Positions 54,815-64,000 of a stretch of DNA of 64,000 bases are shown piece by piece (position 1 is the first letter of the stretch; each line of letters begins with the position of its first letter). This stretch comes from an uncultured Armatimonadetes bacterium (GTDB taxonomy: Bacteria > Armatimonadota > Hebobacteria > Hebobacterales > Hebobacteraceae). A program made the position numbers and the translations under genes. Location of the stretch: the NCBI GenBank assembly GCA_963716175.1, contig OY970296.1, forward strand, positions 3,136,001 to 3,200,000. The letters are read 5' to 3'. Below the pieces are notes generated by a model. That model was given only the letters and a program-made list of their open reading frames with translations, made no database searches and had not been told where the DNA came from.

Positions 54815-55862
54815 ATGATCAAACAGAGGAAGGGCTTCACCCTGATCGAGTTGTTGGTAGTGATCGCGATCATCGCGATCTTGGCGGCGATGCTGTTCCC
54901 CGTGTTCGCACGCGCGCGAGTCGGCGCGCAAGATTCAGTGCCTGTCCAATGTGAAGAACATCGCCATGGCCATCCAGATGTACCTGGCGGACTTCGACCA
55001 GTTCTTCCCGCTCGAGCACGACAGGGCCGCTGCGGACTTCTTCAACGCCTTTGGCGCCAGCCAGGGTCGCTACGACGAGGCCTGGCCGAGCGTGTGCAAC
55101 CATGCTCGCCAGGCGAATCCCTACCTGCGGGAGCCGGTCGTCCTGGATGAGTACACCAGGAACCGTCAGGTGTGGCAGTGCCCGAGTGCGAAGCTGGAGT
55201 ACGGCCCAGGTTACATCTGCCCTATGGGCCGTGGGGGCTGGTGGGTCAACAATTACATTGACCACCCGAACTTCTATGATGACTGGATGGCTCCGCCCTG
55301 CACGATCGCCTACCCCACAGGTTGGGGCGGCAGCGTCACCGACTCCTTCGTGCAAGGAATGTGTCAAGACGCCGAGGCGGGCGGGTTAACCGCCACCGCG
55401 AAGGAGAGTATGTTCGCCGAATCCATCGGGATCAACGACAACATGCACTGGTCGAAGCCCGCTACTGTGAGCGATGCCGCCCACTATATCACGTGCGGCG
55501 AGTGTGGCTCGGGCGGTCTGTGGGGATCGCACTTCCTGGCCTACCCGGATCTGTGTTATGGATCGTCTCCCTGCGGCCTGCCGGACTGTCCTGAGGCCTG
55601 CACCGCAGATTGGGTCAACTGCGCGTGGACCCAGGCCTGCGGGCTGGACACTGAGCATAAGTGGATGTTCTATAGCGACGCGAACTTTCGCAAACAGTAC
55701 ACCCGGCATCTGGGCGGATCCAACGTTGGCTTCCTGGATGGGCACGCGAGGTGGTATCCCGCGGAGACGATCATCTTCCAGAATGGGCCATACGACTGCA
55801 CAGTCTTCGAGGGCCTGGCAACCGGGTGCTGCTGGTATCCGTTGCCGCCGCAGTGCCAGTAG
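54815..55862 (+). CDS. Prepilin-type N-terminal cleavage / H-X9-DG protein 1, frameshifted near 54915
   Basis: MIKQRKG|[27 protein letters not shown]; C-terminal HLGGSNVGFLDGH. Confidence 0.9.
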
Positions 55863-56894: not shown

Positions 56895-57102
56895 CGACTG
56901 AGAGCTTCACCAGGCTCCACCAGAGCAGTAGGATAGTACAGGAAATCCGTATGTTTGTACAGCCTGAAATGAGGTCCGGGGTGGTAACATGGGCGAGCGG
57001 CATCGAGATGGAGCGTGCCTGACCGAAAGGAGGTGATGGGAGCAGCGCTGCCTTGCAGTGCAGTCTCAAGCAGACGGGCGATGTCTGCGAGGAGGTAGTG
57101 CC

Positions 57103-58155
57103 GTGAGCAAGCGACGGAAGGGCTTCACCCTGATCGAGTTGTTGGTGGTGATCGCGATCATTGCGATCCTGGCGGCAATGCTGTTCCCCGTGTTCGCGCG
57201 GGCGCGGGAATCGGCCCGCAAGATCCAGTGCATGTCCAATGTCAAGAACATCGCCATCGCGGTGCAGATGTACCTCACCGACTATGACAAGTTCCCTGGC
57301 GGTGAGCACGCCGCAGACGCCGAAGCCTACTTCGTGAATGCCCCTGGCGGCGGGCAGGACGCCCCCAGGGAGGACTGCAACCACAAGACTCATGCCAACC
57401 CCTACCTGCGGTGGCCGGTGGTTTTCGACGAGTACGTGAAGAACCGGGATGTCTGGCGCTGTCCCAGCGCCAAGCTGGTGAAGGGCGTTACGGTTGTCAT
57501 CACCGCCCAGCCGGGCTGGCTCCAGTACTGGCAGAACCACGAGGGCCTATGGGGCCGCAGCTCTGACTGCAATGGCGGCGGCCCTTGCGGGGTAGCCTGG
57601 CCCACCGGCTGGGGCGGGAGCATCACCGACTCTATCGTGCAGGGAAGATGCGCCACCGCCGATACCGGTACTTTCGAGCAGAGCATCGGGACCGCTACCG
57701 GTCTGGCGGACATGAAGACCTCTCAGATAGACGATCCCTCCTGGACCGTGATCTGTGGTGATGCCGGCGGCCAGGTGGAGATCTCCAGCCCCACCATGCT
57801 CGCCTTCCCGGATGTCTGCGCGCTGAATGGCTGCGGCACTTGCTGCTACAGCCAGCCGGCCGAGATCGGCTGCTGCGCGGGAGACTGGGCCAACTGCCCC
57901 CTCTCTCCGGAGCAATCCTGCCTGGACTACAACCTGAAGCTCAAGTTCTGGACCGATCCCAATCTCCGCAAGCCGTTCGCTCGCCACCTGGGCGGCGTCA
58001 ACGCCGGCTTCGCCGACGGCCACGCCAGTTGGATGGCGTCTGACGCGATCATTGCCAACGCGCCCAGCTCGAACGACTCCAGCGCTGGCAAGATTCGCGG
58101 CATCGGGTGCGCCTGTCTTCCTCCGCCGCCCGGACAGCTGGGCCCGAACCAGTAG
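57103..58155 (+). CDS. Prepilin-type N-terminal cleavage / H-X9-DG protein 2
   Basis: GGAGG RBS; MSKRRKG|[13 protein letters not shown]; [13 protein letters not shown]. Confidence 0.93.
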
Positions 58156-61725: not shown

Positions 61726-62688
61726 CTACCTCAGCTCAGTGTCTGCGCCCATCTCGAGATTCACCTTCGCCTGAGCGCCGGCGGGGGTGGGGGCTACCAT
61801 CTCCATCGAGACCGCGACCAGCTCCTTCACCCTACGCCCGGCCTGATAGTCGAACCACGTCGTCACCTGGGTGCGGCCCGACTCTCGCAAGGCGGGGGAT
61901 TCCGCCTGCTCCGGCCCCATCGGCATGCTCAACTTCCAGGGCGCCACGGCCTCGATCTTCGCGCACTCGACTCCGTTGATGGTCTCAAAGCCGACCAGCG
62001 TGGAGGTGGTCTGCACCGGGAACTTCAGGTGGGCCAGCTGCTCCTTCGCCTCCGCCGGCATGGGCGCGCCCAGCATCTCCGCGATCGCCGCCGGATCTAC
62101 CATCATCTTCCACTCCCAGGATTCGCCCACCGACACTGACTTGTCCGGGTACAGCGGCTGGCCAAAGGCCTTGACCGCCTTGTCCAGCAGCTCCCCCAGG
62201 TTGATCTTCTGCCCGCCGGGGCCGGGTATGGGTGGCAGCAGCTTGTCCAGCCCCGTGATCGCCACCGGCTTGCCCCGCTTGCTTATCACCATCTCGATGG
62301 GAAGCGCGGGGAGCTTGATCAGTTGCGGCGGGCCCCCGCCGGGGCCCTGAATGGCCACCTGCACGTGCAAATCGGCCACGTCGAGCTTGACATCGAAGGA
62401 CTCGATCTGAGTCCCCATCGTCAGGTCCCCGTTCTCGGCCACACTTGTCACCCGCTCCAGGGTCATCGCCCTTCCCTCGAGCCGTGGGCTCACGACGAGG
62501 TTCGACTCCTGAGCCAGCGGCACGGCGATATCCATCGTCATGTTGAACTTGGACTCATAGCGGGAGGCGGTCCCCGGCGTACCCTTCAGCTCCAGTCTCA
62601 CCGATTCCGGCGCCGCCCATCCCGCCGCCACCACGGCTGCGAGCAGCACCCACATCAGCACTATCGCCAACCCTCGCCGCATCTGCAT
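61726..62688 (-). CDS. Secreted hypothetical protein
   Basis: Signal peptide; PDKSVSVGESW motif; GGAAGGAG RBS. Confidence 0.75.
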   Translation of the reverse strand: MQMRRGLAIVLMWVLLAAVVAAGWAAPESVRLELKGTPGTASRYESKFNMTMDIAVPLAQESNLVVSPRLEGRAMTLERVTSVAENGDLTMGTQIESFDVKLDVADLHVQVAIQGPGGGPPQLIKLPALPIEMVISKRGKPVAITGLDKLLPPIPGPGGQKINLGELLDKAVKAFGQPLYPDKSVSVGESWEWKMMVDPAAIAEMLGAPMPAEAKEQLAHLKFPVQTTSTLVGFETINGVECAKIEAVAPWKLSMPMGPEQAESPALRESGRTQVTTWFDYQAGRRVKELVAVSMEMVAPTPAGAQAKVNLEMGADTELR

Positions 62689-62714
62689 TCTCCTTCCAGT
62701 AGTTGCCTTCGCCC

Positions 62715-63278
62715 TTATTCCGACACCGACGGAGCAAACCCCTTGGCGATCCCTCGCATCCGCTCTGCCGCCGCCGCCATCTGCGCGGCATCCAGCAACC
62801 GCTCGATCATAGGGAAGACCAGCCTGTTCTCCTTCTCGATATGTCGCGTCAGGAGGTCGAGGCTGGCGCTCACCACCGCCTGCAGCCCTTCCGTGGAGTA
62901 ACCGTTGGAGCTTCCAGCCCGCCCCATGGCCCCGAGCAAGCTCATCATCTCGCGCATGCGACTGCGGAGCAGATGGTGGGCGCTCAGGTCATCATCCGCC
63001 GCCTCCCCAAAGAACTGAGACAGGATGTCAACCGCGGGCGCGCCCTCCGCCACTATCCTTCGCACCTCCGGGTACAGCCCCTCCTCCTCCTTGCGGAAAT
63101 GCAGCAGCAGGCGCTGTCGCATGGCCTCCAGTCGGGCCCGTATCTCTTTCTCTGCTTGCGGCCGGGCCTGCTTGGCCGCGGTCGCGCCTGCGGCCACCGC
63201 CGCCGCCAGCTCGCGCATGCAGGCCAGCCCGGCCTCGTGCTCTTCCCGCAGTTCCCCCGTCGCTGACTTCTCACTCAT
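62715..63278 (-). CDS. Hemerythrin-like (HHE) cation-binding protein
   Basis: EEH, HFRKEEEGLYP, HIEKENRLVFP. Confidence 0.88.
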   Translation of the reverse strand: MSEKSATGELREEHEAGLACMRELAAAVAAGATAAKQARPQAEKEIRARLEAMRQRLLLHFRKEEEGLYPEVRRIVAEGAPAVDILSQFFGEAADDDLSAHHLLRSRMREMMSLLGAMGRAGSSNGYSTEGLQAVVSASLDLLTRHIEKENRLVFPMIERLLDAAQMAAAAERMRGIAKGFAPSVSE

Positions 63279-63389
63279 CGCGCCAGCTCCCCTTGGCAAC
63301 ACCACGCAGCTTGCGCCCCGCCACACGGCCGCCGGGCAAGTCTCCTTTCCTGGGACTCTCTGCTAGTCCTGCTGGCATCTGACGCTCCA

Positions 63390-63458
63390 GACGCGAGACC
63401 GCCCGGCATCTCTGCCGGGCGGCAAGCCTGGATTCACCTTGATCCAGCTGTTGGTGGT
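63390..63458 (-). ncRNA. Candidate antisense sRNA 1 against FTLIELLVV coding sequence
   Basis: -10 TATCCT (63465-63470), seed ACCACCAACAGCTGGATCAAGGTGAA, 10-bp hairpin 63399-63422. Confidence 0.6.
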
Positions 63459-63594
63459 GAGAGTAGGATAGCCCGATTGTGTGTCGGGATCATTAACCCA
63501 ACCGCAAACTTCTGTGAGTTTTCCAGGCAGCATGGGGGTTCGGCCCCGCCGGTGGTCGCCGAAAGCACTGCCCCATGCCAGGCTGAGGGCGTCC

Positions 63595-63662
63595 CAAACG
63601 CGCAGCCGCCCGGCGTGTGCCGGGCGGCCACCGCACTTCACCCTGATCCAGCTGTTGCTGGT
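63595..63662 (-). ncRNA. Candidate antisense sRNA 2
   Basis: -10 TATGAT (63669-63674), seed ACCAGCAACAGCTGGATCAGGGTGAAG, 10-bp hairpin 63605-63628. Confidence 0.6.
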
Positions 63663-63830
63663 GCCATTATCATAGGCCACAGCCATGTCCGTACTGTGAA
63701 GGCAAGACCAACCTTCTGTGAGTTTTTGTGCCATTGAGGGCTAAGTACCATGTAGGATTTCGGTCACATGGCCGACATCCGTGACACAAATGGTAGTACG
63801 CAAACCTGTGGACCTGTGGTATATAGAGTC

Positions 63831-63917
63831 GGCGGTCACCACCAACAGCTCGATCAGACGTATCAACCGCCCGAACAGCTCTGCTAGGGGTCACCCATGC
63901 AGAGCTGTTCTGTTTGT
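63831..63917 (+). ncRNA. Candidate antisense sRNA 3
   Basis: Extended -10 TGG-TATATA (63820-63825), seed GCGGTCACCACCAACAGCTCGATCAG, 12-bp hairpin 63873-63910 followed by TGTTTGT. Confidence 0.65.
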
Positions 63918-64000
63918 GCCAGGTCAGCCGCGGAGGTCGCGAGCAGGCCCCAGGCTAGCTGCCCGGGTTTCTCGCGCTCTCCCGCGCCTCTCCTCCAGGC

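Follow-up and report, generated by a model that had tools for sequence, protein, structure and literature searches.

Why should an intergenic region of an uncultured member of the Armatimonadota carry, three times over, a short piece of the DNA that encodes the conserved N-terminal motif of prepilin-like proteins? The question arises at the end of the window, the 64-kb stretch of DNA analysed here (G000:C1:3136001-3200000 of a genome that forms one contig of 4.56 Mb with 66% G+C), where positions 63327-63955 are intergenic, with a hemerythrin-domain gene on one side and the gene of a 117-residue membrane protein on the other. On the plus strand the motif is present in sense at 63433-63460 and at 63637-63663, in both cases with GAG changed to CAG, and the minus strand carries a perfect CTGATCGAGCTGTTGGTGGTG motif at 63837-63857. 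A degenerate 21-mer, searched with at most one mismatch, found four matches in the window, namely the three fragments and a real gene at 57130; the same search of shuffled sequence gave no match in 100 shuffles. The original prediction, that the fragments belong to small RNAs (sRNAs) antisense to the motif, had the positions right, with one correction: of its match at 63832-63857 the motif occupies 63837-63857 and the first part, GCGGT, belongs to a stem. The antisense reading is supported as far as the sequence goes, and each of its proposed refuting conditions that sequence could address turned out in its favour. The best explanation as a whole, to which a probability of about 0.6 is assigned, is a conserved sRNA locus that acts in trans on the DUF1559 prepilin-like family.

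The three copies had been described as like units. Instead, two distinct architectures were found, A and B, both read antisense to the prepilin motif, with one type A gene on the plus strand and two type B genes on the minus strand in divergent orientation. On the antisense strand all three copies have a -10-like hexamer shortly before the motif-complementary segment, here called the seed, and a strong GC-rich hairpin after it, as had been proposed; the folds range from -32.6 to -40.4 kcal/mol, with z-scores of -3.4 to -3.7. The antisense orientation is preferred because the tail and the -10 element fit that direction only. The three elements are very probably sRNA genes.

The predicted type A sRNA (63831-63918, plus strand) is about 88 nucleotides (nt) long and consists of a 5' stem, a seed loop and a terminator. 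R1, a covariance model of type A, matches it at G000:C1:3199831-3199920 with 90.4 bits. Upstream lies an extended -10-like element, TGGTATATA, with TGGTATA (63817-63825, plus strand), in which TATATA (63820-63825), preceded by TGG, stands 5 nt ahead of the 5' stem. The element is kept in the aligned type A copies, where TGGTATA or a one-base variant is found at a near-fixed distance upstream of GGCGGT. The 5' stem (63831-63871, plus strand) pairs GGCGGT (63831-63836) with ACCGCC (63866-63871) over 6 bp and closes a 29-nt loop. Within the loop, the seed CACCACCAACAGCTCGATCAG (63837-63857, plus strand) is a 21-nt perfect antisense of the L-I-E-L-L-V-V codons and is unpaired both in the single fold and in the RNAalifold consensus. 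The terminator hairpin GAACAGCTCTGC...GCAGAGCTGTTC with its tail TGTTTGTG occupies 63873-63918 on the plus strand, and a T-rich tail follows the hairpin on the antisense strand only. The complete fold, a 5' stem, an open 29-nt loop and a hairpin of 12 bp or more followed by UGUUUGUG, has an energy of -33.8 kcal/mol and a z-score of -3.7.

The paired regions of type A were evaluated by comparison of relatives. Across 27 distinct sequences the cells are paired in 96.8% of cases, and compensatory changes are found at three pairs (10 cells); the covariation score was reached by 0 of 500 shuffles, and in slid controls 33-54% of cells pair. RNAalifold recovers both helices unaided. In the 5' stem 94-96% of cells are paired, with a closing pair that is GC in 20 sequences, AU in two and CG in two, and the stem is present in the minimum-energy fold of 8 of the 12 genome copies. 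The terminator hairpin has compensatory changes at two pairs in a 28-sequence alignment, and every one of the 12 genome copies ends in a long hairpin and a T-rich tail, the inner sequence of the hairpin differing between genera. Read antisense, type A has the consensus TGGTATA, a gap of about 7-9 nt, GGCGGT and the 21-nt seed, a second gap of about 8 nt, ACCGCC and ACAGCTCTG, an insert that varies, and CAGRGCTGT before a T-rich tail. A separate observation concerns the arms of the type A terminator (63875-63908), in which the seed core AACAGCTC recurs together with its complement GAGCTGTT and whose sequence is conserved across genera. The repetition suggests either birth by inverted duplication of a target fragment or an alternative pairing that may mask the seed.

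The predicted type B sRNAs, B1 (63390-63464) and B2 (63595-63666), both on the minus strand, were matched by R2, the model of type B, at G000:C1:3199380-3199465 (72.9 bits) and G000:C1:3199587-3199669 (78.3 bits). The B1 seed (63460-63433) is followed by a hairpin at 63423-63398 and the B2 seed (63663-63637) by a hairpin at 63628-63605; the folds have energies of -32.6 and -40.4 kcal/mol, respectively, each with a z-score of -3.4. The -10-like hexamers TATCCT of B1 (63465-63470, minus strand) and TATGAT of B2 (63669-63674, minus strand) lie 5 nt before the seeds, and TAnnnT is found about 5 nt ahead of the seed in most type B copies. Farther upstream on the minus strand (63694-63726), B2 has the boxes AAAACTCACAGAAG (63726-63713) and TTCACAG (63700-63694), and B1 has the box AAAACTCACAGAAG at 63509-63522 on the same strand. 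This 14-mer occurs twice in the whole genome, both times at this locus. Boxes of the form CACnGAAnnTT and TTCACA are kept upstream of type B in several genera, and TTCACA stands 20 nt before TAnnnT in six copies. The type B consensus is CACnGAAnnTT, TTCACA, TAnnnT, about 5 nt, a 27-nt 5' seed through GGGTGAA, about 8-12 nt and a CCGCCCGG-loop-CCGGGCGG hairpin; pairing in this hairpin extends to 96.2% of cells, with compensatory changes at three pairs. T runs follow the hairpin in several type B relatives. Copies 1 and 2 together make up a tandem unit of 204 nt, with highly identical blocks separated by stretches of unrelated sequence.

Two further features of type B were observed. In the B2 seed (63640-63660, minus strand) two changes from perfect antisense create a small CCAGC-(A/G)ACA-GCUGG hairpin, and the same two changes are kept in the orthologous G011_B2 and G005_B2 (another genus). 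A fourth type-B-like copy is located outside the window at G000:C1:2875697-2875789 (minus strand, locus L083; R2 44.4 bits) and has, besides a GGAAGTTT box and TATAGC, a seed from which one Leu codon is missing and a hairpin of ACCGCCTGG and CCGGGCGGT; it begins at the stop codon of a recombinase gene of the Phage_integrase family on the same strand (Pfam 4.2e-45).

When 41 relatives were searched with the DNA, the matches reached past the motif into the flanks in 12 of the 14 other genomes of the family, and G011 has the same arrangement of two copies and one inverted copy. Orthologous loci in other genera and on metagenome contigs contain the same 21-27-nt fragments with the same boundaries, and about ten genera and many environmental contigs share not only these boundaries but also the flanking stems, the -10 element and the terminator. 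Conservation of the -10, seed and hairpin, which the original prediction had proposed to look for in relatives, was thus found in other genera of the family. R1 detected full-length type A in 12 of the 15 family genomes (47.8-94.6 bits). None of 16 other genomes of the class had a match above 36 bits (best 35.6), and in a 151-genome sample of the phylum two matches only were obtained outside the family, both of them intact prepilin-like genes read antisense. R2 gave 22 type-B-like matches of at least 44 bits in 10 of the 15 family genomes. Of these, 14 had served to build the model; the other eight are new, and three of them were inspected (in G002, in G006 and at G000:C1:2875697). The three best R2 matches outside the family are intact genes read antisense; these outside-family negatives mean that none was found in the genomes searched and are not proof of absence. 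Taken together, R1 and R2 find at least one type in 14 of the 15 family genomes, the exception being a genome that is 74% complete. A pattern scan of metagenome contigs returned 23 contigs, 16 with a full type A; among the remaining seven were six ordinary pilin-type genes and one divergent type A. In 10 of 17 contigs a type B copy is found on the opposite strand at a distance of 150-450 nt from type A.

The family to which the seeds are complementary is large. A strict DNA pattern for TTY ACN YTN ATY GAR YTN YTN GTN GTN ATY GC has 48 sites in this genome (39 + 9), and an open frame of 150 codons or more follows 43 of them. The first approximately 40 residues are near-identical among the paralogs, and the motif begins 18-27 nt after the likely start codon. 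Two candidate target sites identified by the motif search lie in the window on the plus strand. The site at 57124-57150 is in an intact DUF1559 prepilin-like gene (57058-58155), and the product of 57100-58152 matches N_methyl and DUF1559/SBP_bac_10. The Atlas clusters closest to the DUF1559 protein belong most often to Armatimonadota, which gives no more than a lead on taxonomy. The site at 54836-54862 is equally real as a motif, so that both targets named earlier were located, but the paralog that contains it is frameshifted. With G-U pairs allowed, the type A seed has no true mismatch at 11 of the 48 sites, one at 21, two at nine, three at three and four at four, giving at most one mismatch at 32 of the 48. 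When all genome windows that share a 7-nt complement with type A were scanned for duplexes, prepilin N-termini made up 18 of the top 20, the other two being the DNA complement of type A itself and another pilin-type gene. This ranking is not independent evidence because it follows from how the seed was found.

The seed varies under a constraint of its own. Across 12 genomes, 14 of the 21 seed columns are invariant, compared with none of the nine columns in the rest of the same loop. Seven columns of the seed are variable when 27 distinct sequences are compared. Ten of the 21 positions lie opposite synonymous sites (third codon positions and first positions of Leu codons), and six of the variable columns fall there; the seventh is one of the other 11 and is changed in a single sequence. 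By our own calculation the hypergeometric probability of this distribution is about 0.02. The base facing the Ile wobble position agrees with the majority Ile codon of the paralogs in each of the 12 genomes and, counted by genus, in 9 of 9, although related genomes are not independent. It is G in the seven genomes with an ATC majority (ATC/ATT 39/9, 25/12, 13/2, 2/1, 5/0, 3/0 and 1/0) and A in the five with an ATT majority (2/11, 3/13, 4/16, 11/19 and 9/10). The prepilin-like family is probably the target of the predicted sRNAs.

A number of results weigh against this interpretation, the kinship just mentioned among them. The second Leu codon does not track the majority: the seed of G013 has TTG and 17 of 20 paralogs have CTN, and in G010 the codons are about even (both hand counts). 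Nor are the target codons less diverse at synonymous sites than the nine codons that follow: the ratios to background are 0.66 and 0.68, so that no pairing constraint specific to the target is seen in the paralog messenger RNAs (mRNAs). To most paralogs the B1 and B2 seeds show 2-4 mismatches, for the most part three to four true ones over their 27 nt, among them a G opposite G at the centre, and each seed can partly fold back within its own RNA. Both RNAs have poor U tracts in this genome. A strict consensus scan of 63280-64000 found no sigma-70 promoter of two hexamers (-35 and -10) and no strict terminator. A search of sequencing runs gave no RNA run that contains the locus, and three metatranscriptome runs from the same study yielded nothing that mapped to it, which is uninformative either way. 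Two family genomes have neither a clear type A nor a paralog count that fits, and the correlation between copy number and prepilin-like gene number that had been suggested did not appear, the number of sRNAs not following that of the paralogs across genomes. Finally, the pairing site lies beyond the first five codons, which makes a direct block of initiation doubtful.

On the explanation given above, transcription of each gene would begin at a -10-type promoter of its own, run antisense to the prepilin motif and stop at the hairpin terminator, yielding RNAs of about 65-90 nt. A single-stranded seed, 21 nt in the loop of type A or 27 nt at the 5' end of type B, would pair with the mRNA segment for (FT)LIELLVV, about +25 to +51 from the start codon, in some 48 DUF1559 paralogs. 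The RNAs would act in trans without Hfq by means of a long, near-perfect duplex in the early coding region. In the one-contig genome Hfq (PF17209) was not found, and control genomes gave matches; RNase III, RNase E/G and RNase Y are present. The duplex might lower expression of the whole family either by RNase III or RNase E/Y cleavage or by a block of early translation or elongation. Cleavage or an early-elongation block is favoured over occlusion of the start site because the pairing site lies past the first five codons. A shared transcription factor, suggested because the upstream boxes are conserved, may set the timing. Whether the predicted sRNAs repress the family is judged to be an even chance.

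Trans-encoded base-pairing sRNAs include multi-copy siblings such as RybB, OmrA/B, Qrr and LhrC, and MicC pairs inside the ompD coding region. The elements described here resemble them in being intergenic genes with their own predicted promoters, in a length of about 65-90 nt and in the presence of several related copies per genome, as well as in an unpaired conserved seed, a terminal hairpin and predicted pairing in the early coding region. They differ in the seed, which forms a near-perfect antisense of 21-27 nt to a protein-coding motif shared by some 48 paralogs and is no short, imperfect match to unrelated mRNAs. Moreover, Hfq was not found here, the lineage is uncultured and no Rfam family matches: an Rfam 15 scan of 62500-64000 with E up to 10 had CRISPR-DR9 as its best hit at 20.9 bits, against a gathering score of 45, the others being weaker. 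What is unusual here is the long, target-derived seed directed at one coding motif of about 48 paralogs, together with its codon-shaped evolution; the layout itself is that of a trans-encoded sRNA with siblings.

A parallel in logic is found in plants. There, miR482/2118 and related microRNAs are reported to target the P-loop-coding motif of NBS-LRR families; new regulators arise from the targets, and the wobble positions of the targeted codons shape how the regulators diversify (PMC5026261). The predicted system is alike in setting one small RNA against the conserved protein-motif code of a highly duplicated family, in regulators that would derive from the target genes and in seed variation that follows the target wobble positions. 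Unlike the plant system, which is eukaryotic and uses Dicer and Argonaute, the locus would produce a bacterial RNA of promoter, seed and terminator. The likeness is one of logic only, not of ancestry or machinery. Cis-encoded antisense RNAs of pilin genes are also established, such as the pilE antisense RNA of Neisseria and PilR, the antisense RNA of pilA11 in Synechocystis. Both are aimed, as here, at the 5' part of a pilin-type gene. They overlap a single target, whereas here no gene lies opposite and the targets are dispersed round the chromosome. Literature searches on sRNAs of DUF1559, prepilin or pilin genes and on RNA motifs of Armatimonadota, subscription journals not covered, returned no description of such RNAs.

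Several other explanations were considered. The sRNAs may be real and conserved without control of the family being their job, the complementarity being a relic of their birth and the RNAs having other targets, serving as a sponge or decoy for a motif-recognising protein or RNA, or depending on the conserved ACCGCC/GGCGGT element. In keeping with this, the match of the type B seeds to the paralogs is only moderate, conservation of the stems and hairpins extends to their sequence as well as their structure, the seed core AACAGCTC and its complement recur in the type A terminator, and the target codons lack specific synonymous constraint. However, a relic would be expected to decay, yet the seed is the best-conserved part of the RNA and varies opposite the wobble sites of the target. 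The seed base tracks the Ile codon choice of its genome, and prepilin N-termini dominate the list of predicted duplexes. Another function is considered unlikely.

The possibility was also considered that the elements act in cis, as leaders or attenuators of, or as protein-binding DNA sites for, the flanking hemerythrin and membrane-protein genes. B1 and B2 do lie upstream of the hemerythrin gene on its strand, an order also found in G001, and the type A hairpin could also terminate the convergent gene. However, the hemerythrin gene adjoins the locus in only 4 of 12 genomes, type B occurs elsewhere as well, for example at C1:2875697 after the integrase-family gene, and type A points away from any downstream gene. 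A leader, moreover, has no need of 21-27 nt of antisense prepilin sequence under codon-shaped constraint. A cis-acting role is regarded as improbable.

An action at the level of DNA, in which transcripts or fragments homologous to all the paralogs promote or guide recombination or gene conversion, is given very little weight. Homogenisation of this kind would fit the paralog N-termini, which are near-identical in protein and partly in codons beyond the seed region, and seed variants could be copied from paralogs; however, no direct sign of recombination junctions was seen, a 21-nt fragment is short for homologous recombination, and the promoter-seed-terminator layout is that of a regulatory RNA. 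It is hardly credible, and largely refuted, that the fragments are functionless remnants of decayed or truncated prepilin-like genes: the genome does hold frameshifted paralogs and, at C1:10876, a true-looking remnant with its ribosome-binding site intact, but here boundaries, stems, -10 and terminator persist across about ten genera and in environmental contigs, no ribosome-binding site or start codon precedes the motif in the sense direction, no downstream reading frame is kept between relatives, because the spacer after the motif and ACCGCC varies in length, and in no relative does the locus hold an intact prepilin gene.

Three other candidates were rejected. A REP-like palindromic repeat was discarded since loose matches to the hairpin number 25 in 4.56 Mb, three of them type B copies, and the 14-nt box occurs twice. 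A small sense-strand open reading frame of 41 residues (63741-63866) is not kept in frame after the motif in relatives. A cis-antisense RNA was dismissed because the opposite strand has no prepilin gene, only short open reading frames with a frame that relatives do not keep.

The sRNA locus acting in trans on the family thus remains the preferred explanation, and its interest lies in that family. The DUF1559, or H-X9-DG, prepilin-like proteins make up some of the largest paralog families still without explanation in several phyla that have been little studied. Control of their dozens of copies is, to our knowledge, undescribed. An RNA that is conserved and directed at the sole part invariant in all of them would offer a concrete and testable handle on that control. 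Tentatively, and with slightly less confidence than is placed in repression, it is proposed that small RNAs born from a fragment of the family use its class III signal-peptide motif as a common handle to cap or threshold about 50 paralogs, that they co-evolve with codon choices and are switched by a shared transcription factor, as a bacterial counterpart of plant miR482/NLR. If this is true, motif-based regulation of families by target-derived, wobble-tracking regulators is not confined to plant microRNAs, and bacteria have a new way to govern large paralog families. The predicted RNAs also constitute a well-supported candidate RNA family, with two architectures and about 50 examples, for a lineage in which none was found described.

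Boxes of the GACA/TCACA type are alike upstream of type A (63781-63788, plus strand) and of type B (63694-63726 and 63509-63522, minus strand), and the type A box stands about 31-33 nt before the -10. Their presence before both types hints at one shared regulator for the divergent genes.

The hemerythrin-domain gene (62715-63278, minus strand; Pfam Hemerythrin 2.5e-12) lies downstream of B1 and B2 on the same strand. A search for related loci with its protein returned three loci, unrelated ones from Firmicutes and Spirochaete genomes, which were of no use for synteny or taxonomy. The 117-residue membrane-protein gene (63955-64308, minus strand, with its 3' end at 63955-64000 inside the window) converges on type A. 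Its product has a single N-terminal membrane helix, MDRSVPTLLGITIILMVAVLVV..., and no Pfam match, and a homologue of the gene converges on or adjoins type A in 10 of 12 genomes. The helix-coding segment of this small gene is partly motif-like in some relatives.

Two observations concern the paralogs themselves. In 41 intact copies, codons 9-15 after the Gly codon (for example 57148-57170) read GTG ATC GCG ... GCG ATC almost without change, four codons being fixed in 40-41 of the 41. The stretch lies just beyond the targets of the type A, B1 and B2 seeds and forms GATCGCGATC palindromes; sRNA pairing gives no explanation of it. In addition, two paralogs (54836-54990 and G000:C1:112976) have lost one base in a GCGCGCG/GCGCGGG run about 28 codons in, so that the frame shifts at the same place in both. 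They could be pseudogenes, products of slippage-based switching or assembly errors in a simple run.

Outside the window, G000:C1:10846-10920 (plus strand) holds a truncated prepilin-like 5' end with a ribosome-binding site that ends in ...LLVVIALQ*. It has the look of a genuine gene remnant, which the three fragments do not; read antisense, it is similar to the promoter-proximal region of the 'B3' copies in G005 and G011.

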